Positions 11,918 through 57,800 of a stretch of DNA of 64,000 nucleotides are shown in pieces (position 1 is the first letter of the stretch; each line of letters begins with the position of its first letter). Position numbers and translations under genes: made by a program. The notes beneath the pieces were generated by a model. That model saw only the letters and a list, made by a program, of their open reading frames with translations. It did no database searches and had not been told where the DNA came from. The DNA comes from an uncultured Oscillospiraceae bacterium (GTDB taxonomy: Bacteria; Bacillota; Clostridia; Oscillospirales; Oscillospiraceae), in contig CABUAK010000001.1 in the NCBI GenBank assembly GCA_902489545.1, positions 31,948-95,947 of the forward strand. The letters run 5' to 3'.

Positions 11918-11919
11918 TA

Positions 11920-11948: not shown

Positions 11949-11980
11949 ATTGGCGCTAATTTATTTTGGAGGTATCTCTC

Positions 11981-12181
11981 ATGATTCAGATTACGAAAGA
12001 CACCATTATCGGTGACATCCTGGATATTGCTCCTCAGACCGCTCCTGTGTTCCTCTCTATTGGAATGCACTGCCTGGGCTGCCCCAGCAGCCGCGGCGAG
12101 ACGGTGGAGGAGGCCTGCGCGGTCCACGGTGTGGACGTGGAGAAGCTGCTGGAGGTTATCAACGCCGAGGCCAACAAGTAA
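11981..12181 (+). CDS. DUF1858 redox-disulfide domain protein (hybrid-cluster-protein-associated type)
   Basis: 66 aa with a GMHCLGCP CxxC motif; close match to the DUF1858/TIGR03980 consensus. Confidence 0.65.
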   Translation: MIQITKDTIIGDILDIAPQTAPVFLSIGMHCLGCPSSRGETVEEACAVHGVDVEKLLEVINAEANK

Positions 12182-12247
12182 ACGGTTCCCTGAGGGCCCA
12201 TGCGGCGACGTATGGGCCCTTATGCAGCCTGAAAAAGGAGGGGGAGT

Positions 12248-13724: not shown

Positions 13725-13738
13725 GGAGAGCAGAGACT

Positions 13739-27252: not shown

Positions 27253-27285
27253 CCGCAGCCGTCCGAAGTGAATTCGTCCGGCAGC
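27216..27285 (+). repeat. Copy 1 of an imperfect ~70-bp direct repeat; overlaps the fmt 3' end
   Basis: About 90% identical to 27333-27403; contains the ttccggcc...ggtcggaa inverted motif. Confidence 0.6.
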
Positions 27286-27332
27286 AAGGTTTTGCCTGTA
27301 GGCAAAACGCTTGAACGCCGGATTACCGGCGG

Positions 27333-27403
27333 TTCCGGCCTGGGGCCGGAATGGGGATCCCGCTATTTGGCCGCAGCTGTCCGAAGTGAATTCGTCCGGC
27401 GGC
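27333..27403 (+). repeat. Copy 2 of the ~70-bp direct repeat, intergenic
   Basis: Contains the perfect palindrome ttccggcctggggccggaa; a separate perfect hairpin gttttgcctgtaggcaaaac (27288-27307) lies between the copies. Confidence 0.6.
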
Positions 27404-27608
27404 AGAGGCCGCTGAACAGGCCGGCTGGTTTTGCTGTGCAGGAGCATAGCGGAGTTGGCCTTGCTGCCCGTGTTGCGGGCAGCGGCCGTACAATCCAAGC
27501 GCGGGGGTCGTTCCGACCCACATGCGCGAAAACTTTGTGCGACTGCTTTGCCATATATTGTAGCGCGCTGGGGCGCATGAAGTTTTATGCCCAGAGGAGG
27601 TTTATCGA

Positions 27609-34319: not shown

Positions 34320-34417
34320 CCGCCGGTGTCTTCGTCACCAACCGCCTGCCGCCGGTATATACTGGAGTACTTCGGGGTAAGGGGGCGATAGGAGTGGGGC
34401 CTGGATGGTGCCGGTGG

Positions 34418-34543
34418 ATGGGGACCTGCGCGCTGGCGCTGGGGATCGGGATCTTGATCGCCGCGGTTTTCCCGGTGGGGGCGCTGCTGTTCCTGGTGGC
34501 GTTTCTTCTGATTGGCTGTGGGTGCGCGTGCCTGCGCAGATAG
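34418..34543 (+). CDS. Possible 41-aa hydrophobic small membrane protein (MGTCALALGIGILIAAVFPVGALLFLVAFLLIGCGCACLRR)
   Basis: ORF not in the track; a single TM-like segment; weak RBS; may be spurious. Confidence 0.2.
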   Translation: MGTCALALGIGILIAAVFPVGALLFLVAFLLIGCGCACLRR

Positions 34544-34843: not shown

Positions 34844-36382
34844 ATGGAACTGAAACTGAAAAAGGTCGGCCACGACTACTTTGAGCAGGTGGCCTGGCCC
34901 AGCTTTTCCTGCGAAACCATGCGGGAGAGCATTGTGCCGGACAGCTGCGCGGATATCGCGCGGATCATCGATACCACCGCTCTGGTCTGTGTCACAGGCC
35001 GGGAGGTAACTGGCGACGGCCGCTTTTGCGCCAGCGGCTCGGTGGATGTGGCGGTGCTGTACATACCGGAAAAGGGGGATGGCCCCTGTTCCCTTCGTTT
35101 CCAATTGCCCTTTCAGGCCTTTGGCGATGGACAAGGGGCGGCGGATTGTGAACTCCTGGATATTCGGGGAGAACTGCGCAGTGTGGATACCCGGGTGCTG
35201 AATCCCCGGAAGGTTCTGACACGGGCGGACATTCTGCTGTACCCTTCCGGCTGCCGCCGGACAGCGCTCTCCCTCTGCACCGATGCGGCGGAGGCCGGGG
35301 ATACCATACAGCTGCTGCGCCGGCAGAAGGAGATCCGGGTGGTGGCTGGCGTCCGGGAGAAGGAGTTCACGTTCCTGGAGGAACTGCCCCTGTCCCCAGG
35401 GAAGGGCGGGGCGGAGGAGGTCGTGTCCTTTCGTCTGGCTCTCCGAAGCACCGACAGCAAGCTGATTGGCAGCAAACTGGTGGTCAAAGGGCTGATTGCC
35501 GCCACCGTGCTGTACCGTGAGGCGGGAAATCGCCTGGGGGTACTGCAGCAGGAACTGCCATTTTCCCAGATTTTGGATGGCGCCGGCTTTGATGAGGAGT
35601 GCGAGAGCGAGGCGGTTTACCGCCTGTTGAGCGCCGAGTGCCGGGTAGGCGGAGAGAACAGCCCGGACGACAGCCATCTTTTGACGCTGACGCTGCTGCT
35701 GCGGGGCAGGGCTACCCTGTACCGCCGGGAGCAGGTAGGGTTTATCGCGGATCTGTACAGCACGGCGGCGCCGGTCAATTGCCAGACGATGGAGATTGAA
35801 CTGTGCGAGGACAGCCAGCGCCATATCCGCCGCCAGAATATGCGGGAACTGCTGGAGACCGGCACACCGGTGAAAGCGGTAATCGACACGGAGGTGTGCT
35901 GCTGCGGCGTCCAGTGGACCGGAGACGGTGGGGAGCGGACGCTGGAGATCCCTGTCTGGGCCAGATGCCTGTATCTGGATGAGAACGACAGTCTGCGCAG
36001 CGCCCGGCGGGATTTTACCATCACCTGTCCTGCGGAACTGCCGCCGGAGTGTCAGGCCACGGCGGAGGCCTGCTGCAGGGGGGACGTCATGGCCAGCATC
36101 ATGCCGGACGGTGTGGAACTGCGCTGCGCCCTGGAGTGCGCCATCGATGCCTCCCGCCGGGGCCGCTATGTCTGTGTCAGCGGCGGCGAGACGGAGGAGG
36201 AGGGGGAGCGGCCCGGCGAGATGCCCTCTCTGATTCTGCGGAAGATTGGGCGGGAGGAGACTTTGTGGGCGGTGGCGAAGCAGTACCGTACCACTTGCCG
36301 GGCCATTCTGGATGTCAACGAAATAGCCGACGAGGAGCATATCCCCCTGGACCGGCTGCTGCTGATTCCCAGGGCCCGATAG
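34844..36382 (+). CDS. DUF3794-type protein with a C-terminal LysM domain (SpoVID/SipL-like spore-coat morphogenetic protein candidate)
   Basis: C-terminal LysM (ETLWAVAKQYRTTCRAILDVNEIADEEHIPLDRLLLIP); long N-terminal region resembles the DUF3794/SpoVID N-domain; adjacent to spoVM. Confidence 0.55.
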   Translation: MELKLKKVGHDYFEQVAWPSFSCETMRESIVPDSCADIARIIDTTALVCVTGREVTGDGRFCASGSVDVAVLYIPEKGDGPCSLRFQLPFQAFGDGQGAADCELLDIRGELRSVDTRVLNPRKVLTRADILLYPSGCRRTALSLCTDAAEAGDTIQLLRRQKEIRVVAGVREKEFTFLEELPLSPGKGGAEEVVSFRLALRSTDSKLIGSKLVVKGLIAATVLYREAGNRLGVLQQELPFSQILDGAGFDEECESEAVYRLLSAECRVGGENSPDDSHLLTLTLLLRGRATLYRREQVGFIADLYSTAAPVNCQTMEIELCEDSQRHIRRQNMRELLETGTPVKAVIDTEVCCCGVQWTGDGGERTLEIPVWARCLYLDENDSLRSARRDFTITCPAELPPECQATAEACCRGDVMASIMPDGVELRCALECAIDASRRGRYVCVSGGETEEEGERPGEMPSLILRKIGREETLWAVAKQYRTTCRAILDVNEIADEEHIPLDRLLLIPRAR

Positions 36383-36451
36383 AATTCATCGTCCTGCAGA
36401 AGGAGAGAGGCGTGGCCTCAATGTCATTTAGTTAAGCCTTTTACCGAGCGC

Positions 36452-36497
36452 AAAAAAGTACCCACCCTGTTTTGAATCGGGTGGGTACTTTTTGTTG
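36452..36497 (+). terminator. Rho-independent terminator after the LysM gene
   Basis: A-run, 10-bp stem agtacccacc/ggtgggtact, then TTTTGTTG. Confidence 0.65.
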
Positions 36498-37002
36498 CGG
36501 TAATAAGCCGTGTTATAGACAATACCACTTTTCATATCACACATTTTGGCAAGTCAAGAGTGTATTCGTTCGACAAGCTGAAATTTATTTTGATGAAATC
36601 CGCTTATCAATTTGGTAAAAAAGTTCGCCCAACACCCAACACGCTACGAAAAAGGCAGTCACAAAGTGCCCACCTCTTAAAAATCTATCCCCGCCATTTT
36701 TATATCATCGTCAAGGCTTGTTGAAATATTGCAAAGAGCATTTACTGCCGCCTGTCGGTAAGAAAACAGGCAGATTTCCGTTGCATCTGCACGACTTGTT
36801 GAGATTTGACCTGTATCATTACCATTTACTTTGCATAAATGGTTGACCAAGCGAACTGCCTCCTTGCGGTGTACGCCCCTGCAAACCCGATGCGGTGCGA
36901 TGCGGCAACAATGGTTAAATTAGCACAGAAAAAGGAAATTCCAATCACTTTTATTATACCGGATACAGGAAAAGTAGAGCATTCCTAAAGGACTCTGTTT
37001 TG
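36498..37002. other. AT-rich (about 35-40% GC) stretch with no ORF, at a compositional boundary
   Basis: No ORF of 60 aa or more in any frame across roughly 620 bp, while the flanking core is about 65% GC. Confidence 0.5.
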
Positions 37003-37060
37003 ACAACAAAAACCCCAGCAGGAACTACGGCAAACAAATGTGCCATAGTCCCTGCTGGGG
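37003..37060 (-). terminator. Terminator for the minus-strand GntR gene (long hairpin)
   Basis: 10-bp stem ccccagcagg/cctgctgggg with an extended imperfect inner stem; an A-run on the + strand gives a U-run on the minus-strand transcript. Confidence 0.5.
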
Positions 37061-37119
37061 TTAATAAAAACGATGTGTCACAAATATAGGCGTTTTGGGG
37101 GGACGCGAAGGTCCGCTTC

Positions 37120-37854
37120 CTAGGCAGGGGACTTTTCGGGCGTTACCAGTGGCAGATCAACCCGAAACGCGTATTTGTCACCTCGGACGATAGACTTTGT
37201 ATATTCGATCAGCATATCACCCTCATAACTGTATCGTTCCAAGAGAGTGCAAGGAATATCGGATAAGATGTGCAACAGCGTCTTTTCCTCTAGACGAGGC
37301 ATGACCGGTTGGAATTTCTCTACCGCTCTGTCGGCATGAAAACCATATCTATCGCGAAGAAATTCATACAAGGAACCGTTTGAAAGAATGTCAGTATCCA
37401 ACGATAAAAACCGTGCCCGCGGCAGATAGGTCACTTCCAGCATCAAGGGATATTCTCTCGCGGACCGCAGCCGCACGAGCCTGTGGAACCGGGTACCAAT
37501 CGGATAACCGGTCTCATGTTCCAAGGCGGCATCTGCTTCCACCAAGTTACAGCTGATTACTCTATTCTGGATAATAATATCCACGCTTTTAAGCATGTCC
37601 GTAAAGGAATAGAAGCCAGATAAAGGCTGCGTAAAGAGCCGAGGTTTGATATAAGACCCTGTTCCATTAACCGTTTCTATAATTCCAGTCGCTTTCAGTA
37701 AATCGAGAGCCCGTCGAACAGTTGACCTGCTTACATTATATGTTTTGCACAATTTGTCTTCTGAGGGTAAGGGAGAATTTTCCTGGTAGACTCCTCGCTG
37801 TATATCAGCCAGAAGTTTTTTGTAAATAGTGACAAAAAGGGACTCGTTTGCCAT
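37120..37854 (-). CDS. GntR/HutC-family transcriptional regulator with a UTRA effector domain
   Basis: wHTH (SEDKLCKTYNVSRSTVRRALDLL) plus a C-terminal UTRA domain; about 42% GC; RBS GAGGAGG. Confidence 0.85.
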   Translation of the reverse strand: MANESLFVTIYKKLLADIQRGVYQENSPLPSEDKLCKTYNVSRSTVRRALDLLKATGIIETVNGTGSYIKPRLFTQPLSGFYSFTDMLKSVDIIIQNRVISCNLVEADAALEHETGYPIGTRFHRLVRLRSAREYPLMLEVTYLPRARFLSLDTDILSNGSLYEFLRDRYGFHADRAVEKFQPVMPRLEEKTLLHILSDIPCTLLERYSYEGDMLIEYTKSIVRGDKYAFRVDLPLVTPEKSPA

Positions 37855-37918
37855 CCTATTTCCTCCTCAAAAATCTTCCTGCAAAGAAAGCCGCGGTTAT
37901 TTCATGGGACAACGGTGG

Positions 37919-37964
37919 TCGTGAATGCGATTCGCATTCACGTGATAGGGGGTACCCCCTATCA
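37919..37964. promoter_or_regulatory. Two adjacent perfect palindromes (operator candidates) in the divergent GntR/kinase intergenic region
   Basis: cgtgaatgcgaTtcgcattcacg (11-bp arms) then gtgatagggggTAccccctatcac (11-bp arms). Confidence 0.4.
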
Positions 37965-38108
37965 CGAATCTTAGCTGACAGAGAAATCTATACAGATGCT
38001 ACGTGGAGATAACCTCAGTTCTTGGCAGATTGACCAATAACAACCTTGCCCTTTAATATACTGCCGACAAATTTGCCTGTCAAGCCTTTTTGCGACACCG
38101 CCCCAAAA

Positions 38109-38180
38109 GAGATACAGGTTGGCTTAGCTGTATGCTCAAATTTGAGATACCTGTATCTCAATCAGGCCCACCTGTATCTA
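38109..38180. promoter_or_regulatory. Three copies of an ACCTGTATCT motif (one inverted) upstream of the sugar operon
   Basis: agatacaggt at 38110-19; acctgtatct at 38149-58 and 38170-79; about 100-170 bp upstream of the kinase start. Confidence 0.35.
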
Positions 38181-38279
38181 AATGACCAAATCGGTTGACT
38201 TTTTCAGTTGAAATCTGTACGGTATATACAAAGGCATACCCCAAGTACCATAAGAATTCGGTAAAATGGAGGTTCGGCC

Positions 38280-39212
38280 ATGAAAAAGTGGTTCATCGGA
38301 GTAGACGGGGGCGGCACAAAAACGGCGGTCGCCGTCTCGTTGCCGGATGGAAAACCAGTAGCGGAGACAGTCGGGAAAGGGTGCTCCTATCAGATGCTGG
38401 GCGTTGATGGCGCCGTCACGGTCATCATCAAGGAGGTGCGTTCCTGCCTGGAGGCCGCCGGAATCACCTTGGATGACTGCGCCGGGTGCTGCCTTGGAGT
38501 TCCTTGCTATGGCGAGAACGCCGAAAACGATGCCGCGATAACGGAGGCACTGCGGCAGGCACTCTCCCCTGTTCCGGTCCACATCGTCAATGATGTGGAA
38601 GTGGGATGGGCTGGAGCTCTGGCCTGTCAAGCGGGAATCCATATCGTGGCGGGGACCGGGGCCATTGCCTTTGGCAAAGGTCTGGACCAGCGGGCTGCCC
38701 GATGCGGCGGCTGGAATGAGTTCTTTGGCGACGAAGGCTCCTGTTACTGGGTCGGGAGGGAGGCCATGAGTCTCTTTACCAAGCAGGCGGATGGACGCAT
38801 CCCCCGCGGGCCCCTCTATGACGTTGTACGGCGGGAACTGTCATTGTCCAAAGACATGAGGTTCATTGACATTGTAGTAAGCGATTTGGCCCCCTATCGG
38901 GACAAAGTTGCCGCTTTCCAACTCTATGCCAGTCAAGCGGCAAAACTGGGCGATCCGGCAGCGGTGTTGCTGTACGAGAGAGCGGCCCGGGAGCTTGCGC
39001 TGCTGGCGGGTGCTTTACGAAAAGAGTTGGTACTGCCGGAAACAGCCAGTGTTACCTACTCTGGCGGACTGTTTCGGACAGGCAGCCTGATTCTCGATCC
39101 GTTGGCAAGGGAACTGGATGGCTGTGGCTGCGTCTTGCGGAAACCGGAGAAAAGTGCTCTGGAAGGTGCGCTGCTGCTGGCTGTCAAACAATTTCACGGG
39201 AAAGGCAGGTAA
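38280..39212 (+). CDS. BadF/BadG/BcrA/BcrD-type ATPase (N-acetylglucosamine kinase-like sugar kinase)
   Basis: N-terminal ASKHA signature GVDGGGTKT; eukaryotic-type NAGK-like length; RBS GGAGG. Confidence 0.75.
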   Translation: MKKWFIGVDGGGTKTAVAVSLPDGKPVAETVGKGCSYQMLGVDGAVTVIIKEVRSCLEAAGITLDDCAGCCLGVPCYGENAENDAAITEALRQALSPVPVHIVNDVEVGWAGALACQAGIHIVAGTGAIAFGKGLDQRAARCGGWNEFFGDEGSCYWVGREAMSLFTKQADGRIPRGPLYDVVRRELSLSKDMRFIDIVVSDLAPYRDKVAAFQLYASQAAKLGDPAAVLLYERAARELALLAGALRKELVLPETASVTYSGGLFRTGSLILDPLARELDGCGCVLRKPEKSALEGALLLAVKQFHGKGR

Positions 39213-39217
39213 AAACT

Positions 39218-40255
39218 ATGTATTTGACTGAAGCGGAGATCCTGGATACTCCGCTGGCTCTGGCCTCCACCTGCGACTACTTTAAGAAGCGCGACGGAGA
39301 TCTGGCCGAATTTTTCGCAAAACACACGCAGAGGAAATTCGCCGTCCTGGGCTGCGGCTCCAGCTTTATGCTGGCAAAGAGCGCCGCGACACTGCTGGCA
39401 TCGATGCCCGATACCGTTGCCAGTGCGATCCCTGCCGGTGACTATATCCTCAATTATGATTTCTGGCAGGAGACCGTTCGGGGCAGCATCGTCATTCTGC
39501 TTTCCCGCTCCGGCAAGACCTCTGAGATGGTCTGGGCGCTCAAACACATTAAGGAAACCCTGGGCTGCCCGGCTATTTCCATTACTATGAAGGCAGAGAA
39601 CGATCTCACACCGCTGTGCGACCTGAATCTGGTGCTGGATTGGTGCTACGACAACAGTGTCTGCCAGACCCGCACGGTGACGAACCTCTACACTGCATCT
39701 CTGCTGCTGGCAGCCAAATATGCCGGCAAGGACGATTTGCGGAAGAGCGTTCTGGCGGCGGCGGAGAACAGCAACGCCTTCAATCTCAGGTACCGTCCCA
39801 TGCTCCAGGAGATTGCCGCCATGGATTGGGACCATGCGGTGGTCCTGGCCGATGGGCCGGTGAGCGGCATTGCCGAGGAGGGCGCGCTGGCTTTTACGGA
39901 GATTGCTATGCTGCCGGGCTGGTGCTTCCATCTGCTGGACTACCGCCACGGCCCCATCGTGGTCAGCGGCGGCAAAACCCTGACGCTTGTACTCCTGCGT
40001 CCCGGCGAGGGCGAACTGCAGGGTAAGATGGTTCAGGATGTAATGGCCCGGGGGAGCATCGTGGTGACGATCTCCGACCAGGCAGAAAATCTGTATGGCG
40101 CAGCGGCCCACGTTCAGATCACGGGTGTGGATGACTTCGCCGCTTGGGGCATTCTCTTTATCTACGTGGCCCAGATGACCGCGCTGCTCAAGGCGCTGGC
40201 CTTGGGCGGCAACCCGGATCAGCCCAAGGGGCTGGATGCGTACATTTCTCTTTGA
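39218..40255 (+). CDS. Double-SIS-domain sugar-phosphate isomerase/deaminase (AgaS/FrlB/GlmS-C-like)
   Basis: Two SIS domains (GCGSS...SRSGKTSE motif); 345 aa. Confidence 0.75.
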   Translation: MYLTEAEILDTPLALASTCDYFKKRDGDLAEFFAKHTQRKFAVLGCGSSFMLAKSAATLLASMPDTVASAIPAGDYILNYDFWQETVRGSIVILLSRSGKTSEMVWALKHIKETLGCPAISITMKAENDLTPLCDLNLVLDWCYDNSVCQTRTVTNLYTASLLLAAKYAGKDDLRKSVLAAAENSNAFNLRYRPMLQEIAAMDWDHAVVLADGPVSGIAEEGALAFTEIAMLPGWCFHLLDYRHGPIVVSGGKTLTLVLLRPGEGELQGKMVQDVMARGSIVVTISDQAENLYGAAAHVQITGVDDFAAWGILFIYVAQMTALLKALALGGNPDQPKGLDAYISL

Positions 40256-40430
40256 TGGGAAACTGCCCAGCTAACTGCTGGTGCTTTTCCGTAGCGGAGA
40301 AAAATACTGGAAATGTTAAGAGGCAGAAACAGGATTGGCAATATGTGCCAATTTGGGAGTTCTATTCCGCAAGTAACGAGTAAGAACTAAGCAGAAAGAA
40401 CGGAACGAATTAATGGAGGAGGTTCACGAA

Positions 40431-40496
40431 ATGCGTAGACGAAACAGAAGCAGGTTCCTGGCAATGCTTTTAAGCTTTGTGTTCACAGTTCAGTGA
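40431..40496 (+). pseudogene. 21-codon ORF resembling an orphan signal peptide (MRRRNRSRFLAMLLSFVFTVQ), a possible remnant of a deleted solute-binding protein gene
   Basis: Strong SD GGAGGAGG 9 nt upstream; basic N-terminal region plus hydrophobic core, then an immediate stop. Confidence 0.25.
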
Positions 40497-40586
40497 TCTC
40501 CTCACCCTCACCCCTCAGAAGACGGGAACACAAAACCGATGCGAAAAGTGGATATACGGCAAATTTAGAGCAAAGAAGGAGAAGGC

Positions 40587-41957
40587 ATGAATAAAATAAC
40601 ATTTCTGGGCGCAGGAAGTTCCGTATTCGCTAAAAATGTTCTGGGTGATTGTATGATGACGGAGGCTATGAGCGATTGGGAATATGCCCTGTTCGACATC
40701 AATCCTCAGCGCCTTGAAGAATCATACAAAATGCTTTCCAGCATCAATTGCAACTGCAACAGCGGAAAAGCCAAAATTGTCAAGTATGATAATCGGCTGG
40801 AGTCCCTCCGCGATGCAAAATACGTTGTCAATGCGATTCAGGTAGGCGGGTATGATCCTTGTACTATTACCGATTTTGAAATTCCCAAGAAATATGGTTT
40901 GCGTCAGACGATTGGCGACACCAACGGCATTGGCGGCATCTTCCGCGGGCTGCGTACTATCCCTGTTATGAGGGGATTTGCCGAAGATATGGAGAAGGTC
41001 TGCCCGGATGCGCTGTTCATCAATTACACAAACCCCATGTCCATTCTGACATTGGCATGGAACCGGTACTCCAGTATCAAGGCCGTTGGGTTGTGCCATT
41101 CCCATCAGGAGTGTATCCCAAGCCTTTTCGGCAAACTCGGCCTGCCTCAAAACAATCTGAAGTATAAGATTGCGGGCATCAATCATATGGCATGGCTGCT
41201 GGAGGTCACTCGCGAGGGAGAAGATTTGTACCCCATGATTAAGCAGAGAGCGGCTGAAGGACCAATTATTGATTCCTATGCGGAAGCCCGCAAGATATAT
41301 CGTCAGATTCCGCGCATTGAGGGTGAATTTACCGTTGACAACAATGACGATATGGTTCGCTTTGAATTGATGAAGCAGTTCGGTTACTATGTGACAGAAT
41401 CCAGTGAGCACAGTGCCGAGTACTACCCCTATTTCATCAAGAAAGAGCACCCGGAGTTAATCAAAAGGTTCAACATTCCTCTCGACGAGTATCCCCGCCG
41501 CTGCTTAATTCAGATTGAGGAATGGGCAGAACAAGCAGAAAAGCTGATCCACGATGAAAAACTGACCCACACCCACAGTCATGAATATGCCTCCGGAATC
41601 ATTGAGGCTATTGAGACTGGCAAGCCGTTCTCGTTCGGCGGAAATGTGATGAATACCGGTCTAATCGACAACCTTCCCGCAGATTGCTGTGTTGAGGTCA
41701 CGTGCCTTGCCAATGAAGGCGGCATCCAGCCCTGCCATATTGGAGCATTACCCCACCAGTTGGCAGCATTGAATATGCGGCAGATCAGTGTGCATCAGCT
41801 TACAGTGGATGCTGCACTTACTGGAAAAAAGGACTACATCTACCAGGCGGCGATGTTAGATCCCCATGCCTCTGCCGAACTGACCATTGATGAGATCCGC
41901 TCTATGGTAGATGATCTCATTGCCGCTCATGGCGATTGGTTGCCTGCATACCACTGA
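40587..41957 (+). CDS. Glycoside hydrolase family 4 (NAD+/Mn2+-dependent alpha-glycosidase)
   Basis: N-terminal Rossmann motif KITFLGAGSSVF and GH4 conserved regions; about 44% GC; RBS AAGGAGAAGG. Confidence 0.85.
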   Translation: MNKITFLGAGSSVFAKNVLGDCMMTEAMSDWEYALFDINPQRLEESYKMLSSINCNCNSGKAKIVKYDNRLESLRDAKYVVNAIQVGGYDPCTITDFEIPKKYGLRQTIGDTNGIGGIFRGLRTIPVMRGFAEDMEKVCPDALFINYTNPMSILTLAWNRYSSIKAVGLCHSHQECIPSLFGKLGLPQNNLKYKIAGINHMAWLLEVTREGEDLYPMIKQRAAEGPIIDSYAEARKIYRQIPRIEGEFTVDNNDDMVRFELMKQFGYYVTESSEHSAEYYPYFIKKEHPELIKRFNIPLDEYPRRCLIQIEEWAEQAEKLIHDEKLTHTHSHEYASGIIEAIETGKPFSFGGNVMNTGLIDNLPADCCVEVTCLANEGGIQPCHIGALPHQLAALNMRQISVHQLTVDAALTGKKDYIYQAAMLDPHASAELTIDEIRSMVDDLIAAHGDWLPAYH

Positions 41958-41978
41958 GACTGAGAAGGGAGAAATGAC

Positions 41979-43370
41979 ATGTCAAATGATATGAAAAGCA
42001 CTGTAAAGACAGAAGAGCCAAAAATGTGTACCAAGAAAGAGCAGATAGGTCATGCTCTCGGTGTGCTGGGTCATGATTCTGCATATACTATGTGGGGAAC
42101 TTGGATGATGCCATTCATGACGGACATTCTGATGTTGCCCGCAGCGTTTATCGGAGTTCTTGGCACAGCGGGACGCTTTTTTGATGCGTTCACCGATATT
42201 TCCATGGGTGTGATTGCCGACCGCACCAGAAGCAAATGGGGGCGCTTCCGTCCTTGGGTTCTCCGGGCGGGTCCGCTGTTCTGTCTGCTGATGGCACTAA
42301 GCTTTATCAAATTGCCTATTGGCGTTACTGGTCTATGCGTTGTTGCCGGTGTACTGTATATCCTTACAGGGAGCATTGCCTTTACGGCGGTAGACATTCC
42401 TTTTTGGTCTCTGCCTGCTGCGATGACCAGCAATACAGCTGAGCGGTCCAGCATCATCGGCTCGACTACAACGGCATCTAATCTGGTTACTGGCCTGCTG
42501 GGGGTCGTTATGCCAATCATTCTGGCACAGTTCGGTACATACGAGTGGACATCGTATTTCTACATGGCACTGGTCTTTGCTATCTTTGCCTCCGTCATGT
42601 ACTTCCTGTGCTTTAGGATGGTAAAAGAGCATGTTGTGCCAGACGATACGGAGAAATTCAGCCTGGTATTGGCACTGAGGAACATCTTTACAAACCAGCC
42701 ATTGCTCTGTGTCCAAATCTCCAATATTTTCTGTCTGGGCGGCATGGTTCTCCGAGGATACCTACTGTATTACTACTGCCAATATAACTTGGGTAATGTG
42801 GCGCTGATGGCACCATTAAGTGCCATCGGTACGGTTGGTATGGTTGTCGGTGCAATTCTGTTTACCCTCTTAGCAAAATATATTGGCAAAAAGAACTGCA
42901 TGTTTGGTATCGCCATTATCTATGCAGCAACAAACATCGTTCTGTACTTCATTGGCTGGGGTAATTACGCACTATTGTGTGTGTGCGCAGCGATAACGAC
43001 GACCACAAGCGGAGCAGCTATCGTGTGCGTCAACGCAATGATGGCTGATACAATCGAATATGGCGAGTGGAAAACTGGTCAGCGTAATGAAGCAATGATT
43101 ACCTCCACCCGTTGCTTTGTTACAAAGTGTGTTGCTGCCCTGGCCGCTCTGGCGGTAGTCGCTGCAATCGGCATGACTGGAATGAATCCGGAAGCAGCCG
43201 TGCAGGCCCCCGCAGTTCTGAATGGGTTCCACCTTCTGTATACCTTAGTCAATGCCTGTGTCATGATTTTGGCTGTGATTCCGATGTTTTTCTATAAGCT
43301 GACTGAAAAACGTCACGCTGAGATTATGGAAGAACTGGCCGCCCGCAAGGCCAGCAAGGGCAATAACTAA
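41979..43370 (+). CDS. MFS transporter of the glycoside-pentoside-hexuronide (GPH):cation symporter family
   Basis: 12-TM pattern; GPH signature region (GVIADRTRSKWGRFRPW); about 45% GC. Confidence 0.8.
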   Translation: MSNDMKSTVKTEEPKMCTKKEQIGHALGVLGHDSAYTMWGTWMMPFMTDILMLPAAFIGVLGTAGRFFDAFTDISMGVIADRTRSKWGRFRPWVLRAGPLFCLLMALSFIKLPIGVTGLCVVAGVLYILTGSIAFTAVDIPFWSLPAAMTSNTAERSSIIGSTTTASNLVTGLLGVVMPIILAQFGTYEWTSYFYMALVFAIFASVMYFLCFRMVKEHVVPDDTEKFSLVLALRNIFTNQPLLCVQISNIFCLGGMVLRGYLLYYYCQYNLGNVALMAPLSAIGTVGMVVGAILFTLLAKYIGKKNCMFGIAIIYAATNIVLYFIGWGNYALLCVCAAITTTTSGAAIVCVNAMMADTIEYGEWKTGQRNEAMITSTRCFVTKCVAALAALAVVAAIGMTGMNPEAAVQAPAVLNGFHLLYTLVNACVMILAVIPMFFYKLTEKRHAEIMEELAARKASKGNN

Positions 43371-43458
43371 ACCATTCTCTCTCCCCTCACACATAGCGCA
43401 GCCCCCAAGAGGCGCCCGGCGGCAAGCGCCGGGCGTCTCGACTATTTCTGGAAAGGCA

Positions 43459-44784
43459 ATGACAATGAAAACAAACAAAAAAAACCCAATTTTGAGCCTA
43501 CTGCATAACCGCGATGTCAATCGCGAAAAAGGGATTTATTCCTGCTGCAGTGCAAATGAGTATGTCATCCGGGCCGCCCTCCGCCGTGCCAAAGCCAATA
43601 ACACTGTAGTCCTGGTGGAGTCCACCGCCAACCAAGTCAATCAGAACGGCGGTTACACTGGCATGACCCCCGCCGCGTTCCGGCAATTTCTGGATCGCCT
43701 GGCTGCCGAGGAGGATTTCCCCGTCGAAAGCCTGCTCTGCGGCGGCGACCACTTGGGCCCTCTGACCTGGACGGCTCTCCCCGAGGCTCAGGCCATGGCC
43801 AACGCGGAGGAGCTGATCCGCTCCTATGTGCTGGCGGGCTTCTCCAAGATACATATTGATACCAGTATGCGCGTGGCAGACGACGACCCCAACGCCCGCC
43901 TGTCCGACGAGACCATTGCCCGGCGGGGGGCCCAGCTCTGCCGCACGGCGGAGGACGCCTTCGCCCAGTACAGCGAGGCGCACCCGGAGGCCCCCGCCCC
44001 GGTGTACGTCATTGGCAGCGAGGTCCCCATCCCCGGCGGGGCCCAGGAGAACGAAGACAGCGTGGCCGTCACCTCTCCGGCGGACTGCGAGGCCACGCTG
44101 GTGGAGTTCCGCCGCGCCTTCGCCGCTCAGGGGCTGAAGAATGCCTGGGAGCGGGTAGCCGCGCTAGTGGTGCAGCCGGGAGTAGAATTTGCGGACGACA
44201 GCGTCGTCACCTATGACCGCGCCGCTGCCAGGGAACTGATGGCGTGTCTGGACAACCACCCTGGCTTGGTCTTCGAGGGCCATTCCACCGACTACCAGCC
44301 CAAGGAGCGCCTGCGGGAGATGGTAGAGGACGGCGTGGCGATCCTGAAAGTGGGACCCGCCCTGACCTTTGCCCTGCGGGAGGGGCTGTTCGCTCTGGAG
44401 CAGATCGAGCGGGAGCTGTACGGCGTCAGCGACTTCCCCCGCTCCCATTTCCGCGCCGTGCTGGAGCAGGCCATGCTGGAGGACAAGAGCCAGTGGGCGA
44501 AATACTACCACGGTGATCTGCCCCGGAAGCGGTACGCCCGGGCGTTCAGCTACTCCGACAGGGCCCGATACTACCTGGTGAACCCCAAGGTGCGCTCCGC
44601 CACGCAAACGCTCCTTACCAATCTGGACGCCGCGAGTATTCCCATGGCCCTGCTCAGCCAGTACATGCCGGTGCAGTACGCCCGGGTACAATCGGGGAAG
44701 CTGCCGCTGCGGGCTACTGATCTCCTGATTGACCGGGTGGGAGATTGTATTGACGACTATCTGTATGCCACGATATGGCAGTAA
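43459..44784 (+). CDS. D-tagatose-bisphosphate aldolase non-catalytic subunit family (GatZ/KbaZ)
   Basis: Length and conserved GatZ/KbaZ regions (CSANEYVIRAAL...VLVESTANQVNQNGGYTGMTP). Confidence 0.8.
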   Translation: MTMKTNKKNPILSLLHNRDVNREKGIYSCCSANEYVIRAALRRAKANNTVVLVESTANQVNQNGGYTGMTPAAFRQFLDRLAAEEDFPVESLLCGGDHLGPLTWTALPEAQAMANAEELIRSYVLAGFSKIHIDTSMRVADDDPNARLSDETIARRGAQLCRTAEDAFAQYSEAHPEAPAPVYVIGSEVPIPGGAQENEDSVAVTSPADCEATLVEFRRAFAAQGLKNAWERVAALVVQPGVEFADDSVVTYDRAAARELMACLDNHPGLVFEGHSTDYQPKERLREMVEDGVAILKVGPALTFALREGLFALEQIERELYGVSDFPRSHFRAVLEQAMLEDKSQWAKYYHGDLPRKRYARAFSYSDRARYYLVNPKVRSATQTLLTNLDAASIPMALLSQYMPVQYARVQSGKLPLRATDLLIDRVGDCIDDYLYATIWQ

Positions 44785-44800
44785 ACAAAGGGGGATAACC

Positions 44801-45661
44801 ATGCCATTAGTCAACAGCAGAGAACTTTTGAAGGACGCGCAGGCCCACGGCTACGCCGTCGGCGCGTTCAACGTAGAAAATATGGAAATGATGCAGGCAG
44901 TAGTGGCCGCAGCGGAGGCCGAGTCCGCGCCGCTGATGCTGCAGACCACGCCCTCCACCCTTCGCTATGCGGGACCATCAGTCTTTGCCGCCATGGCCCA
45001 GGCCATCGCCGGAAAGGCCCATGTCCCTGTGGCGATCCATCTGGATCATGGGGACAGCTTCAAGCTGTGCCGACAGGCCGCTTGGGACGGATACACATCG
45101 ATAATGATCGACGGTTCCAAGCTGTCCCTGGAGGATAACATCACTTTGGTGCGCCGGGTGGTGCAGATGGCTGGGGATGTGCCCCGGCAGCCCGCCGTGG
45201 AGGCGGAGCTGGGGCGCTTGGGTGGTAAGGAGGACAGCCTGGAGGTAAAGCCCGGTGAGGACATTTATACCGATCCCGGCGAAGCAGCCCGTTTCGTGGA
45301 GGAGACAGGAGTCGATTCCCTGGCGGTAGCCATCGGCACGGCTCATGGGTTTTATAAAGGCAAACCCAAGCTGGACTTTGACAGGCTGGCTCAGTTGCGG
45401 GACGCAGTATCTGTGCCGCTGGTGCTCCACGGATCTTCCGGTGTTCCGGATGAGGATGTGCAGAGGGCGATTTCTCTGGGCGTGTGCAAGGTGAACTTCG
45501 CCACGGAGTTGCGGGCCGCCTATACGGAAGCCACCCGGAAGACTCTTTCCAGTGACCCGGATCTGTATGATCCCAAGAAATTTGGTAGTCCCGGTCGGGA
45601 GGCTGTGACAAAACTGGTGCGCCACCGGATTGCCGTCTGCGGATCGTGTAATCGCGTATAA
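44801..45661 (+). CDS. Class II fructose/tagatose-bisphosphate aldolase (KbaY/GatY/FbaA family)
   Basis: Zn-ligand motifs (HLDHG, HGSSG); ATG at 44801 after AAAGGGGGA. Confidence 0.85.
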   Translation: MPLVNSRELLKDAQAHGYAVGAFNVENMEMMQAVVAAAEAESAPLMLQTTPSTLRYAGPSVFAAMAQAIAGKAHVPVAIHLDHGDSFKLCRQAAWDGYTSIMIDGSKLSLEDNITLVRRVVQMAGDVPRQPAVEAELGRLGGKEDSLEVKPGEDIYTDPGEAARFVEETGVDSLAVAIGTAHGFYKGKPKLDFDRLAQLRDAVSVPLVLHGSSGVPDEDVQRAISLGVCKVNFATELRAAYTEATRKTLSSDPDLYDPKKFGSPGREAVTKLVRHRIAVCGSCNRV

Positions 45662-46125
45662 GCTCTATTGGAGGACTGAATTTGTCTTTATGTCAGATCA
45701 ATTTATGCTCAACTGAAATATATAAGTCTGTTGATGGTCTGATACATATGGCAATTCAGCCCTCCCAGTCTGTAATGATGGGCCAATTCTCAAAGGAGGA
45801 GTAAAAGTGGTTGTTTTAGGGGGTGATAACTAGAGGGGCGGGATAAAGCTCCCTCTTGGACTTTGGAGTTGCAAACCGACCTTGGTTGCACAACTTAACG
45901 GAGGTAGAAAGCATAACAGAGATAACTTAACACGCGTCTTGCGGCGAGGTTTAGAGGCAGCGGAGGACCACTGCCTCCTCTCGGCGACCGCTTTGAACTT
46001 AAAAAGGATGATAAAATGTATGGGATGACGCCGATGGGCGTCTTTTTTACTGCCATTTTTCCACTCAAAATAAATGAACACGCACTTTGTCAACAGCTCC
46101 AAAATGTCCCAAGGCGGAGGCATCC

Positions 46126-46154
46126 TTGTTGTCCCGCCCGGACAGAGGTATAAT
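46126..46154 (+). promoter_or_regulatory. Near-consensus sigma-A promoter driving the recombinase fragment
   Basis: TTGTTG, 17-nt spacer, TATAAT, followed by GGGAAGGAGG and ATG at 46186. Confidence 0.45.
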
Positions 46155-46185
46155 ATAGATGTAATGTGATAGGGAAGGAGGAACA

Positions 46186-46353
46186 ATGGCACGAACAAAA
46201 AACAGAGGATTGCAACAGAGTTTCTCTCCCTCTTATACCGTTCCCCGCTGGCGGCTGGGCGAATACATCCGACTTTCTAAGGAGGACTTGAAAAAGGGAA
46301 AGGACGATAGCAATAGCGTCATCGACCAGCGTGATCTGCTCAATGACTATTGA
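46186..46353 (+). pseudogene. N-terminal 55-codon fragment of a large serine recombinase (truncated remnant)
   Basis: MARTKNRGLQQSFSPSYTVPRWRLGEYIRLSKEDLKKGKDDSNSVIDQRDLLNDY* carries the catalytic-Ser region (YIRLSKED) and the S-x-S-(I/V)-x-NQR motif of serine recombinases, then stops; the downstream sequence is unrelated. Confidence 0.5.
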
Positions 46354-46491
46354 TCATAGCCTGAATCAGAGAAGCCTCATTGTCATAGCTATGCTGTCCA
46401 TGTTTGTCGTCAGCGCCGCGTTCAACAAGACACAGCTGGTAAAAATATTTCCCGGGCAATTGTACATATCGCCAAGGGCAGCTTTACCAAG

Positions 46492-47514
46492 GTGATGGCG
46501 GGCTACATTCTCTGTGCCGCCCTTCTCTGCTCGCTGATCAGTTCCAAACTGATCCCATTCTGCATTTTGTATCCCCTTTTGGCCGGGACACTGGAGGACA
46601 TGGGTGTCAGTCCCAGCAAGGAAATGTTCCCTCTGGGCCTGACGTGTATTGCCTGCCTGGGGATCCTGCCCATCGGCAGCGGCGCCGCCAGCTTTGCCCA
46701 GTCCAACGCCTATCTGCAGGCCAGCAGCGTGACGGAATACGCCTTTGTAGCCACCAATACCTTTATGGGCCGCTGGCCGGTGCTGGTTGTCTGTGTGCTT
46801 TACGCAATTTTTCTGGCGCCGAAGCTGGCCCCTGATCGGCCCCCTGTGGCTATTAACGCCATGGAGAACGCCGCCGCGGGTCGCGCCGTCAATAAAGAGG
46901 CAATGGACCCCTTCCATGAGAAGTGCGGCTATATTGTCTTCTTTGCCGTAAGCATTGGCCTGCTTCTCTCCTCCACACTGGGTGTTCCCCCCTGGTTTAT
47001 CACCCTTGTGGGTGCGATGCTGGTGGTAATCACCGGCACGATGAAGCCCCGGGAGGCGGTAGCCGCCATGCCCATCGGCATTTGGCTGCTGTTCGTGGGG
47101 GCTATATGTCTGGCCAACGCGCTGAATCTGACGGGAGCCGGTGCCATGATCGGTGATTTTATTGCAAAGGTTTCCATGACACTGAAATACGACGTGCTCA
47201 TTTATGCCGTGTTTTTTATTGTACCCTTTGTTATGACGCAGTTTATATTCAACCAGACAGTATCCACCATCCTGATGCCGATTACCATCCAGGCCTGTAT
47301 GAGTTTGGGGGTCAATCCGGTTGGACCCATGATCTATGTGAGCGGCGCGGCGCTGACAGCGTTTATGTCCCCCATGGCCACCGGTACGGTTCCGTACTAT
47401 ATGGCGGCCGGTGGGTATGATATGCGCAGTGTGCTCAAGCAGTCCTGGCTGCCCGCGCTGCTGTTTGCGGTGGTACAGGTGGCGTGGATGTCTGTTGCCT
47501 TTCCGCTTCATTAA
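46492..47514 (+). CDS. Ion-transporter superfamily permease (SLC13/CitMHS/ArsB-NhaD-like), probably N-terminally truncated or frameshifted
   Basis: 340-aa polytopic membrane ORF with GTG start; a hydrophobic TM-like segment upstream (46343-46495) is in a different frame across an A5/T3/C3/G3 homopolymer region. Confidence 0.5.
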   Translation: MMAGYILCAALLCSLISSKLIPFCILYPLLAGTLEDMGVSPSKEMFPLGLTCIACLGILPIGSGAASFAQSNAYLQASSVTEYAFVATNTFMGRWPVLVVCVLYAIFLAPKLAPDRPPVAINAMENAAAGRAVNKEAMDPFHEKCGYIVFFAVSIGLLLSSTLGVPPWFITLVGAMLVVITGTMKPREAVAAMPIGIWLLFVGAICLANALNLTGAGAMIGDFIAKVSMTLKYDVLIYAVFFIVPFVMTQFIFNQTVSTILMPITIQACMSLGVNPVGPMIYVSGAALTAFMSPMATGTVPYYMAAGGYDMRSVLKQSWLPALLFAVVQVAWMSVAFPLH

Positions 47515-54710: not shown

Positions 54711-54880
54711 TGCCTAAATTGGAAAAGAATGGCTTGACAGCGGTGGCTGGAGCCAGTATACTTCATGTATATCTTATATCATGTTACGCTTATAAGAAGC
54801 ATACGGGATGTGACAGGGTATAGGGGCCGAATATGGCCGGCTGGATACCGGCAATTTCACAAAGGAAAGGGAGAAACAAC

Positions 54881-57800
54881 ATGAAAAAGCATCTGGGAAT
54901 TCGGCTGTTGTCGATCGCCCTGGTGACGGTTCTGCTGTGCGGCTACACAGCGCCCCTGGCCTCCGCCAGTTCCGGCGGGGACAGCGTGGACCTGCGCTTT
55001 ACGCCGCTGGAGGAGAACGACCAGGAGTCCTCCGTAATGGCGGAGGCGGTGGCGGAAGAAATCGAGGAGACACCGGATTACGCGGATACGGATATGGTCC
55101 GTGTCTCCATTGTACTGGACGGCCAGTCCACCCTGGAGGCGGGGTATCCCGCCCAGGACATTGCGGAGAACCGCTCCGCCATGACCTTCCGGGCGAAGGT
55201 GCGCAGCCGCCAGGAGACCGTCATCAGCCATATCTCCCAGGAGGCCCTGGGCGGTAAGGAACTGGATGTGGTCTGGAATATTACGCTGGCGGCCAACATC
55301 ATTTCCGCCAATGTCCCCTTTGGGGCCCTGGAGGATATCTCCGCGGTGGACGGCGTGAGCAGCGTGGTCCTGGAGCGGCGCTACGAGCCCTGCGTGGTGG
55401 ACCGGGAGGAGGCGGACGACCCCCACATGGCCACCTCCACCGGAATGACCGGGGCCAACGCCGCCTGGGCTGCGGGCTACACCGGCGCCGGCTCCCGGAT
55501 TGCCGTCATCGATACCGGTACGGACACGGACCACCAGTCCTTCTCCGACGAGGGCTTTGCCTACGCCCTGGCGCAGCAGGCCCAGACGGAGGGCAAGGAA
55601 CTGGACGCCTATCTGGAGGAACTGGACCTGCTGGACGTGGAGGAGATTGCGGACAAGCTGAGCCAGCTGAACATTGCCGCCACCATGGACGGCAAGAACT
55701 TTGAGGTCAGCAGACTGTATCTCACCTCCAAGCTGCCCTTTGCCTTCAACTATGTGGACAAGAGTCTGGACGTGGCCCACGACAACGACAGTGCCGGAGA
55801 GCACGGCTCCCACGTGGCCGGCATTGCCCTTGCCAACCGCTACATCCCCAGCGGCAACGGGACCTTCCAGAATGCGCTGGAGTCCGTCAAGACCCAGGGG
55901 GCCGCGCCGGATGCCCAGCTGATTACCATGAAGGTGTTCGGCAAAATGGGCGGCGCCTATGAGTCTGACTACATGGTGGCCATTGAGGACGCCATCATTC
56001 TCGGCTGCGATGCCGTAAACCTGTCCCTGGGGTCCGGCTCTCCCGGATGGAGCCGCAACGGGGACGACGTCTATCAGGCCATTTTGGAGGGCTTGGCTGA
56101 CAGCGGCATCGTGGCCACCATGTCCGCCGGCAACTCCGGCACCTGGATGGAAAACAGCTACAGCCCCACGGGGTACCTCTATGCCGACGATGTAAGCATG
56201 ACGACCACCGGCACCCCGGGCACCTCCGCCAATTCCCTCTCTGTGGCGTCCGTGGATAACGCCGGCTACACCGGCATGTACATCAAGTCCGGAGAGAGCA
56301 TCATCTTTTATACGGAGTCCGCCTCCTACTCCAATGAGCCGATACATACCCTGGTGGGGGAGCGGGACTACGTCCTCATCGATGGGTACGGCACAGAGGA
56401 GGACTTCGCGGCGCTGGGCGATGCCCTGAGGGGTAAGATCGCCATCTGCTCCCGGGGCGGCAGCGTATCCTTCTATGTGAAGGCCAACAACGCCGTGAAG
56501 GCGGGCGCGATCGGCGTTATCGTCTATAATAACACCACAGGCACCATCAACATGGACCTGTCCGACTACGAGTATACCGCGCCCTGTGTCTCCATCACCC
56601 AGGCGGACGGCGCGCTGCTGAAAGCCAACGCCACAGCGGTGAATGGCCACTATGAGGGGACCTTTACCATCAGCGATGAGATCGCCAGCGTGGCCTATGA
56701 GCAGGCGCACTATACAATGAGCGACTTCTCCTCCTGGGGTGTGCCCGGCTCTCTGACGATCAAGCCGGAGATCACCGCCCCCGGCGGCAGCATCTACTCC
56801 ATCAACGGCGCCGCCTCCGGCGGTCAGGCCTATGAAACCATGTCCGGCACCTCCATGGCCGCCCCCCAGGTGGCAGGTATGGTGGCGCTGGCCGCGGAGT
56901 ACATTCGGGAGACCGGGCTGGAGGCACGGACAGGCCTGACCAGCCGTCAGCTGATCCAGAGCCTGCTCATGTCCACCTCCGTTCCCCTGATTGAGGAGGC
57001 CAGCGGCAGCTACTGGTCCCTACTGAAGCAGGGCTCCGGACTTGCCAATATCAGCGCCCTTCTGTCCGCCGACTCCTTTATTACCATGGGCGCGGACGCC
57101 ACAGACTCTTACGCTGATGGCAAGGTGAAGGCCGAACTGGGGGATGACCCGGGCCGCACCGGTGCCTATCGCTTTACCTTTGCGCTCCACAACATGGAGG
57201 AGACGGCCCAGCGCTATGTGTTCTCCTCTGACTTCTTCACCCAGGATCTGTTCACTCAGGATGGCATCTCCTACCTGGACACGGCCACCACCGCCCTGGG
57301 CGCCAGTGTGCGCTACACGGTGGATGGAGTGACTTACGTGCCCTCCGCCGCCCGGGTAATCTGTGATCTGGATGGAGATGGGGACACGGACGCCGACGAC
57401 GCCCAGTTCATCCTGGAGAGCGTGGTGGACCCCTCCGTCTCCGTGGCACCCGAGGGGGATGTGGATGGCGACGGGGCGGTGACGACCTATGACGCCTATC
57501 TGATTTTGCGGGACCTGGAAACCGGCTCCGTTCTGGTAGAGGCCGGCGAGAGCGTGGAGGTGGCGGTGGAGATTGTTCTCCCCAAGGCTGTGAAGGCACA
57601 GCTGGACGCCGCCTACCCCAGTGGGGCCTATGTGGAGGGCTATGTGTTTGCAGCCCCTGTGTCTACGGATGAGGGTACGGTGGCCGCTACCCACTCCATC
57701 CCGGTGCTGGGCTTCTACGGCAGCTGGACGGATGCCTCCATGTATGACCGGATTACGTATACCGACTACCTGTATGGGGATACCACTGCCTCCTACCTGG

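Follow-up and report, generated by a model that had tools for sequence, protein, structure and literature searches.

The Aga/Gam pathway, known from E. coli (AgaS-KbaZ/KbaY) and Shewanella (AgaP-AgaK-AgaS-AgaZ-AgaY) and summarized in its canonical form in PMC12118421, runs from a sugar kinase through a SIS-domain deaminase/isomerase to tagatose-6-phosphate and a GatZ/GatY aldolase (PMC12118421, PMC5583593). An operon with the same logic lies in a 64,000-nt stretch of an uncultured Oscillospiraceae bacterium (assembly GCA_902489545.1, contig CABUAK010000001.1, positions 31,948 to 95,947; hereafter, the window), where it occupies most of a low-GC block at 36383-46360 between sporulation genes and pcrA. 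We consider it likely that this block, situated at a synteny breakpoint, is an accessory region of composite make-up, as opposed to a single element that entered between sipL and pcrA, its core being a horizontally spread functional operon and its edges the debris of successive mobile-element events. Contigs and loci used for comparison are designated below by L numbers.

The operon covers about 8.8 kb (core approximately 36839-45690) and encodes a GntR/UTRA regulator, a kinase, a SIS protein, a GH4 glycosidase, a GPH symporter, GatZ and GatY, with the regulator gene oriented divergently. The GntR/HutC-type regulator (37120..37854, minus strand) matches Pfam GntR (3e-17) and UTRA (1e-28). On the plus strand follow a BadF/BcrAD-family, amino-sugar kinase-like sugar kinase (38280..39212; Pfam BcrAD_BadFG, 9e-29) and a two-domain SIS protein resembling amino-sugar-6-phosphate deaminases/isomerases (39218..40255; Pfam SIS). 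After a 331-bp spacer of 45.3% GC (40256..40586) come the two genes of an exchangeable cassette, namely a glycosidase of the MelA-like alpha-galactosidase subfamily of GH4 (40587..41957) and a GPH-family (MFS_2) cation symporter (41979..43370). The GatZ/KbaZ-like tagatose-bisphosphate aldolase subunit (43459..44784; Pfam GatZ_KbaZ-like, 3e-175) and a class II ketose-bisphosphate aldolase of the GatY/KbaY type (44801..45661; Pfam F_bP_aldolase, 1e-101) complete the plus-strand series. Gene content, intactness and family matches are established: open reading frame (ORF) calling, Pfam and NCBIfam agree with the gene list given in a preliminary description of this DNA. Among the matches listed, the block is present in all 10 sipL-bearing contigs of the species; outside the cassette the strains are 99-100% identical across it, with all seven operon genes intact. 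The decay that the preliminary description had proposed is therefore seen at the block edges and not in the sugar genes.

In the region between the regulator and kinase genes, ACCTGTATCT occurs three times exactly, once inverted (38110..38183). Allowing at most one mismatch, the window contains 7 matches against 1.9 expected, a number reached in 0 of 100 shuffles, and the motif is kept in L110 and L111. These repeats in the divergent promoter region form a candidate operator.

The locus resembles the Aga/Gam systems in its GntR-family regulator, in uptake by a permease and not by a phosphotransferase system (PTS), and in carrying, according to Pfam, the GatZ/KbaZ and GatY/KbaY aldolase pair. 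Both aldolase proteins score close to curated models: GatZ reaches 521 against the TIGR02810 cutoff of 569 and GatY 378.5 against the NF009374 GatY cutoff of 383, each just under, and GatY passes TIGR00167. The SIS protein, in contrast, is not of the AgaS family (TIGR02815 agaS_fam, 55.9 bits against a cutoff of 529.2) and is nearer to GlmD-type glucosamine-6-phosphate deaminases. Its best NCBIfam score is to GlmD (89 against 580), all its equivalog scores are under cutoff, and its closest solved structures are the glucosamine-6-phosphate deaminases 2DEC, 2CB0 and 1J5X, with E. coli AgaS-type proteins more distant (best E-value to AgaS-type proteins in the PDB, 3.5e-8). The kinase is related to NagK/MurK at the family level only (NCBIfam NagK_SO3507, 74.6 bits, under cutoff), with the N-acetylmuramic acid/N-acetylglucosamine kinase 8ZO3 (3e-28) and human N-acetylglucosamine kinase as its closest solved structures. 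A further difference is that the operon has no AgaA and carries a GH4 glycosidase and a GPH symporter.

These last two genes recall melAB (MelA + MelB), being adjacent, exchanged as a unit and above the cutoffs of their family models. The glycosidase gives full-length matches to both Pfam Glyco_hydro_4 and Glyco_hydro_4C and passes the alpha-galactosidase subfamily model PRK15076 (617.9 against a cutoff of 486); the symporter is above the TIGR00792 cutoff (324 against 231) and below that of the MelB equivalog (198 against 456). Unlike melAB, which stands alone, this cassette has an amino-sugar/tagatose backbone around it, and two GH4 paralogue lineages alternate or co-occur in it.

Judging from gene context, on which the substrate and all enzymatic steps below depend, the operon is probably devoted to galactosamine-type sugars. 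The GntR/UTRA repressor would control the divergent promoter through the repeated ACCTGTATCT sites, the GPH symporter would take up an alpha-linked galactosaminide or galactoside, and the GH4 enzyme would cleave the imported sugar. The BadF-type kinase would then phosphorylate the amino sugar, and the SIS protein would deaminate and isomerise the product to tagatose-6-phosphate. After phosphorylation of the latter by a kinase presumably encoded elsewhere, GatZ/GatY would split it into dihydroxyacetone phosphate and glyceraldehyde-3-phosphate. Neither ORF calling nor Pfam revealed among the block genes an AgaA/NagA deacetylase of the N-acetylgalactosamine (GalNAc) branch. This absence points to galactosamine rather than GalNAc; it is consistent with galactosamine as the substrate or with a deacetylase encoded elsewhere. 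In the literature, an AgaS-type enzyme without AgaA serves as a signature of galactosamine, not GalNAc, use (PMC5583593).

Several features of the genes speak against this assignment. The SIS protein and the kinase lie far under the NCBIfam cutoffs for AgaS, GlmD and NagK, and the block encodes neither a deacetylase nor a tagatose-6-phosphate kinase. Curated models would place the glycosidase among the MelA-like alpha-galactosidases and class the transporter as a generic GPH protein, and a melibiose-type or other alpha-galactoside substrate is possible.

The backbone is tied to galactosamine from GalNAc-terminated glycans by what occupies the position between the SIS and GatZ genes in sister loci, a link of context and not of homology. 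In other species this slot holds a GH36 galactosaminidase with or without a GalNAc deacetylase. In L110 a 777-aa protein matching FpGalNAcDeAc of Flavonifractor plautii (6N1A, E 2.7e-259) is followed by a GH36 gene, and in L106 the GH36 protein matches FpGalNase (9AWT, 8X1B), named 'A type blood alpha-D-galactosamine galactosaminidase', at more than 1000 bits, with about 70% identity by eye over 660 residues. Orthologues of the Flavonifractor pair are found in this way in L109/L110 and L106, whose backbones are 86-96% identical to that of the window; the slot of the window itself differs in lacking both enzymes and has a cytoplasmic-type GH4 enzyme with a symporter instead. We put forward, as a speculative proposal that we regard as more doubtful than probable, that the kinase-SIS-GatZ-GatY backbone is an undescribed route of gut Oscillospiraceae for galactosamine freed from blood-group-A or mucin GalNAc by FpGalNAcDeAc/FpGalNase. 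The GH4+GPH cassettes would then be alternative cytoplasmic entry modules, with the GH4 enzymes cleaving imported alpha-galactosaminides. To our knowledge, alpha-galactosaminide cleavage is not a reported GH4 specificity. The context links the uncharacterised backbone to the clinically studied enzyme pair used in A-to-O blood conversion and makes it a candidate downstream pathway for gut galactosamine use. The main lead is biochemical, and the GH4 enzymes of the cassettes are a set worth assaying.

Within the species the slot is itself polymorphic. In 3 of the 10 sipL-bearing contigs (L004, L005 and L009) the tract 40664-43354 on the plus strand has only 61-76% DNA identity to the window, whereas its flanks exceed 99%. 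The breakpoints fall 77 bp into the GH4 gene and at the transporter stop codon, and the alternative proteins are 79% (GH4) and 66.5% (GPH) identical to those of the window. The 331-bp spacer downstream of the SIS gene is common to both alleles; it has 82% identity to the same region in L109/L110, and L111 has only 17 bp there. The GH4 of the alternative cassette is from a second paralogue lineage; L114 has both lineages in tandem. By sequence comparison, the SIS-GatZ slot is exchangeable, with two divergent GH4+GPH alleles within the species.

Smaller differences between strains were noted nearby. A 300-bp patch inside GatZ (43966-44266) is 92.7-96% identical between strains with surroundings above 99%, and looks like a short recombination tract within the gene. 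The end of GatY and the following gap (45466-46100) differ by 3-4% between the window and most strains, with a 9-bp indel, far above the rest of the block. The tandem GH4 genes of L114 (10001-12823), one per paralogue lineage, are located beside a mannose-family PTS with a sigma-54 activator.

The block stands out in composition, as had been claimed, with 52.5% GC against 61.1% in the remaining window (59.7% for all 64 kb). Outside it, 1-kb intervals have a mean GC of 0.612 (standard deviation 0.027, minimum 0.557). At the same scale the block shows three troughs (36.4-38.3, 40.2-43.4 and 45.5-46.5 kb) with z of -4.5 to -6.1, and 25 of the 25 lowest-GC intervals of the 64 kb fall within it (36-46.5 kb). 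Between the troughs, the segments with kinase/SIS and GatZ/GatY do not depart from core values (z -1.9 to +1.5). The shift in sliding-window GC is strong, whereas the tetranucleotide correlation to the background dips only mildly (z -2.4 to -2.6). Individual figures of the preliminary description needed correction: the left stretch, said to be 35-40% GC, measures 42-43% (200-bp minimum 36.5%), and the GntR gene 45.9% instead of 42%. The reported alternation of sugar genes between about 44% and 60% GC is real, but its low figure is 48-49% (GH4 and GPH); kinase, SIS and GatY are at 59-60% and GatZ at 63%. GC at third codon positions (GC3) deviates likewise from the core genes (0.72-0.81) in GntR (0.48), GH4 (0.56) and GPH (0.54). 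It is intermediate in the kinase (0.64) and GatY (0.64-0.69 for the two) and core-like in SIS (0.74) and GatZ (0.79). The arrangement does not stem from faulty assembly, as both block junctions were seen again in independent metagenome assemblies from several studies and cohorts; an ENA human-gut scaffold agrees with the window at 100% identity.

When the SIS and GH4 proteins were used as queries and the surroundings of their matches looked up, a common framework emerged in many gut Clostridia: a divergent GntR gene, kinase, SIS, the slot, GatZ and GatY. A scan of JGI metagenomes for relatives of the SIS protein found none. The neighbours of the operon are unrelated from locus to locus: GH78/GH3/GH43/GH35 genes in L106, a Cna-B surface protein in L110, DUF6744-YpsA on one side and a sigma70_r4/HTH_17/tyrosine integrase module downstream in L111, an insertion sequence (IS) in L119 and a mannose-type PTS in L114. 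The backbone shares 93-96% protein identity with L106, a mouse-gut metagenome-assembled genome (GCA_910588045.1), GH4 is 96-97% identical at the amino acid level to L111, L119 and L120, and GPH 95-96% to L111 and L119. At the DNA level, backbone identity to L106 and L111 is 84-91%. The species, a human-gut Oscillospiraceae, is in comparison without a close relative in the searched collections, with a best PcrA match of 66% among GTDB species representatives and a best non-self SipL of 74%. Since an operon identity of 93-97% is far above that of any core protein of the species, the simplest reading of the comparisons is that this operon family, found in gut Oscillospiraceae, has been transferred between lineages. 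The horizontal origin proposed earlier is thus supported by the unrelated contexts, by the identity to the mouse-gut genome set against SipL at or below 74% and PcrA at or below 66%, and by the ypsA copy and the IS and recombinase remnants that adjoin the operon.

The same comparisons bear on a native, vertically inherited operon whose low GC would reflect gene-specific constraints (membrane protein, regulator, expression level). Such an origin would agree with its occurrence in all contigs of the species examined, with the core-like GC3 of SIS and GatZ (0.74-0.79) and with the low GC of transporters and regulators in every copy of the family. It is nonetheless very improbable, as the GC3 of 0.48-0.56 in GntR, GH4 and GPH against 0.72-0.81 in the core does not come from amino-acid content: L114 has the same proteins at 0.69-0.78. 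The operon is also absent near sipL in relatives, its proteins are 93-97% identical to those of loci with unrelated flanks, and a ypsA fragment was co-transferred.

For the transferred operon, the GC alternation is older than its arrival. In L106 the GC is 48% for GntR, 62/61% for kinase/SIS, 54/50% for glycosidase/transporter and 64/62% for GatZ/GatY; in L111 the corresponding values are 40%, 58/56%, 51/51% and 58/58%. The alternation recurs in L110 and L119, and because orthologous loci in hosts with flanks of 45-56% GC (those of the L106/L110/L111/L119 type) show the same pattern, it was inherited with the locus family and predates arrival here; the more distant L114 copy has a near-uniform GC3 of 0.69-0.78. 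The assembly in several steps that had been read from the alternation is accordingly not supported for this genome. For composition scans this is a caution: GC alternation within an operon can be inherited and is, alone, no evidence of stepwise assembly in the host.

Mosaicism is real at the family level, where the sequences show two GntR types and differing slot contents. The GntR of the window is 86-88% identical at the amino acid level to those of L110, L111 and L118 and 62-68% to those of L106, L119 and L114. A different origin of the window GntR from that of its backbone was considered and dropped, as pairwise matrices show the L106 GntR to be the outlier; in these matrices the window GntR, kinase, SIS, GatZ and GatY have a single consistent set of distances to L110/L111 (86-92%). 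From L119 the cassette of the window has diverged only about a third as far as the backbone (transporter 95.9% against SIS 87.8%), although both proteins are about 65% identical to L114.

The site of the block was compared with those of the closest sipL-bearing genomes, L101 and L102 (SipL 73% and 70%). Both keep the upstream order priA...rsgA, small ORF, sipL, and in both spoIVA follows about 220 bp after sipL; in L104 (SipL 67%) the two genes are separated by 6.4 kb of other inserted DNA. The operon block is absent from the syntenic site in all three, relatives that are only 67-73% identical in SipL. Neither spoIVA nor a remnant of it was found in the 64-kb window or the block gaps, and the left segment of the window lacks the intergenic sequence that L101 and L102 have in common between sipL and spoIVA. 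The genes DUF1858-TrmK-NIF3-YebC, which follow spoIVA in L102, are at 11981-14470 of the window, just after carD-ispD. The region is, by gene order at 10102-14470 and 34844-36382, rearranged on both sides of the expected spoIVA position. The idea that rsgA, spoVM and the LysM gene would be directly followed by pcrA elsewhere did not hold, since in the two closest relatives sipL leads to spoIVA. An adjacency of sipL and pcrA in relatives was likewise rejected: in the pcrA loci of 46 related genomes, both sipL and the transporter are missing from the 10 kb around pcrA. Because sipL is followed by spoIVA and not by pcrA in the nearest relatives, the block marks a synteny or rearrangement breakpoint. 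Between rsgA and sipL the window has a hydrophobic 49-aa ORF (34394-34543, plus strand), with a 48-49-aa ORF at the same position in L101, L102 and L104; the ORF, earlier labelled spoVM, has no Pfam match and is at most a putative SpoVM; what stands is the position, which is kept in relatives.

This result bears on the model of the preliminary description, a single island between adjacent sipL and pcrA, built here by separate acquisitions from donors of differing GC and now decaying. It would account for the sharp GC troughs alternating with core-like segments, for the recombinase remnant and broken transporter at the right end, and for family modules with differing histories (GntR type, slot content). 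We nevertheless consider it improbable: the conserved neighbour of sipL is spoIVA, the alternation is shared with L106, L110, L111 and L119, five backbone and regulator proteins keep one consistent set of distances to L110/L111 (86-92%), the operon genes are all intact and conserved, and flanking repeats were not found. As a genomic island, the composite region is nothing unusual, consisting of a catabolic operon that was transferred and of mobile-element debris, at a point of rearrangement.

Debris lies at both edges of the block. The non-coding stretch described after GatY exists as a 524-bp gap, but, like the left stretch, it holds a gene remnant, contrary to the earlier view of both as devoid of genes. 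Here it is the 3' end, about 50 codons, of an IS1182-like transposase (45861..46028, plus strand; tblastn). A search of phage DNA with the right gap gave a single short match, which led to this remnant. It is 56% identical over 55 aa (tblastn, E 4e-12) to a 451-aa DUF772+DDE_Tnp_1_6 ORF of MT836631, and its Pfam DDE_Tnp_1_6 match covers the C-terminal end only, under cutoff (E 0.016). Between GatY and this remnant, 45691-45860 has no blastn or tblastx match to any fetched locus, and the right gap has no plasmid DNA match.

Homology to the fecal record MT837700 (95%) and to Subdoligranulum OY725840 (85%) begins at 46100, where the promoter region of a large serine recombinase is followed by a 55-codon frame (46100..46353, plus strand; frame 46186-46353), the first 54 codons of which are recombinase. 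The 5' remnant reported earlier is confirmed: strain L097 has at the same place an intact 561-aa recombinase with Resolvase, Recombinase and Zn_ribbon domains, and the 55 codons of the window, without any Pfam match, are a remnant and not a gene. In L095 the recombinase is cut to 213 aa and is followed by TPR and SBP_bac_5 genes. A 47-bp SBP_bac_5 scrap from the middle of the gene (46348..46394, minus strand) adjoins the frame in the window; it matches L095 13573-13619, inside a 567-aa SBP_bac_5 gene, at 100%. Next is the broken transporter, which proved to be a CitMHS/DASS anion-transporter pseudogene (46395..47514, plus strand), 5'-truncated (Pfam CitMHS matched from profile position 83, TIGR00785 from position 108 of 444) and frameshifted near 46490. 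In other strains this gene has further breaks, in pieces of 151+165 aa or 308 aa. Because other strains show other states at the same point, the right edge of the window would derive from at least two deletions.

The recombinase points to conjugative transposons of the Tn5397/Tn1549/Tn916 type with a TndX-like recombinase. Its relatives at 79-80% identity are in one fecal contig and one Subdoligranulum record; the full-length form shows large serine recombinase architecture and shares about 32% identity with a gene annotated as TndX. In Subdoligranulum (OY725840) the homologue is the last gene of a run, after TrbL_2, a VirB4/TraG-like ATPase, NlpC/P60, a relaxase and sigma70_r4; the window differs in keeping only the promoter and 54 codons, without conjugation genes or ends. 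In the fecal and Subdoligranulum records homology stops about 57 bp after the recombinase stop, and 1.5 kb is shared upstream (L115, L116). An element running rightward from 46100 was rejected on these grounds. Since the shared DNA is upstream and homology ends past the stop, the element body would have been left of the recombinase, where the operon sits here. The right end, conserved about 40-57 bp after the recombinase stop in L097, L116 and L117, is deleted in the window, and a left end matching that element was not found. Beyond the right end, L097 has an AT-rich segment (13121-13524) with a 98-aa ORF without Pfam match, and the segment matches neither the window nor any fetched locus.

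Delivery of the operon as cargo of a conjugative element is plausible because of this position of the element body and the arrangement in L111, and we give it a little less than an even chance. We are equally tentative about a more inclusive alternative, in which the whole block is one degenerate conjugative element with the operon as cargo and the serine recombinase as last gene, its conjugation and regulatory modules having been deleted later, one deletion being IS-associated. The body of the OY725840/MT837700 element occupies the place that the operon has here, and in L111 the operon takes the place of cargo at a Tn916-like right end, with sigma70_r4, HTH_17 and the tyrosine integrase immediately downstream of it. 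The IS tail between GatY and the recombinase promoter, the cut ypsA at the left edge and the intact recombinase of L097 fit as well. Set against this, the window yielded neither conjugation genes nor a left end or att site, the Subdoligranulum element is without homologues of the L111 flanking genes (DUF6744, HTH, YpsA), and no recombinase lies beside the operon in L106, L110 and L114. The findings agree just as well with an element that landed beside a resident operon and whose body was then removed by a single deletion.

At the left edge, an AT-rich segment of 42% GC (36383..36838) directly after the sipL stop forms the left synteny breakpoint. Within it, a perfect 15-nt hairpin accompanied by T-runs (36453-36493) is probably the sipL terminator. 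The segment gave no blastn or tblastx match to any fetched locus and none in searches of plasmid or phage DNA. The adjacent 36839..36988 (plus strand), in the stretch described as free of genes, is the 3' remnant of a ypsA-like gene (DUF1273/SLOG; residues 131-176 of 180), found by tblastn. These last 46 codons, beside GntR, are 65% identical to the intact 180-aa YpsA of L111 (E 3e-18, tblastn) and 74% to the L110 copy. Because ypsA neighbours the operon, intact and beside GntR, in L111 and L118, the remnant would be a footprint of the earlier context of the operon. Between it and the GntR stop, a 22-nt inverted repeat of 91% complementarity (37011..37062) is a likely terminator. An Rfam scan of 33-49 kb gave three chance-level matches under the gathering score, including a miRNA match at this repeat. 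DUF6744 and YpsA genes are paired directly upstream of the operon GntR in L118 (456-6069) and L111 (2-1351), and in L118 an SMC_N/AAA_15 ATPase gene precedes the pair, which may belong to a module for mobility or defence travelling with the operon.

Some observations count against a composite region with a transferred operon at its core. There is no true empty site, and with the nearest relatives distant (SipL 70-74%) the insertion is neither datable nor precisely delimited. The distance of the window species to the L106 organism is judged only by the fact that SipL and PcrA have no close homologues, and about 456 bp of left DNA and about 200 bp after GatY match nothing searched. No att sites, flanking repeats or tRNA mark the boundaries: a tRNA scan found no tRNA in the window, and the search for att-like direct or inverted repeats linking the block flanks, which the preliminary description had suggested, gave chance-level short matches only. 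The window has no conjugation genes, and no relaxase, coupling protein or VirB4-like ATPase was present among the block ORFs of at least 100 aa and the small gap ORFs, the nine main ORFs having been scanned with Pfam and the short edge ORFs only partly. Mobility is represented by the serine recombinase 5' remnant and the IS transposase 3' remnant.

Two observations concern the window outside the block. A 72-nt direct repeat, 90% identical and with copies 118 bp apart (27215-27286 and 27333-27404), separates fmt from the Zn-peptidase gene; both copies align as one in L005, which suggests the loss of one copy and the spacer. Further to the right, 54833-62848 (plus strand) is one ORF of 2671 aa, whose counterpart in L091 is a 2655-aa S8 peptidase with PA, Big_2 and SLH domains.

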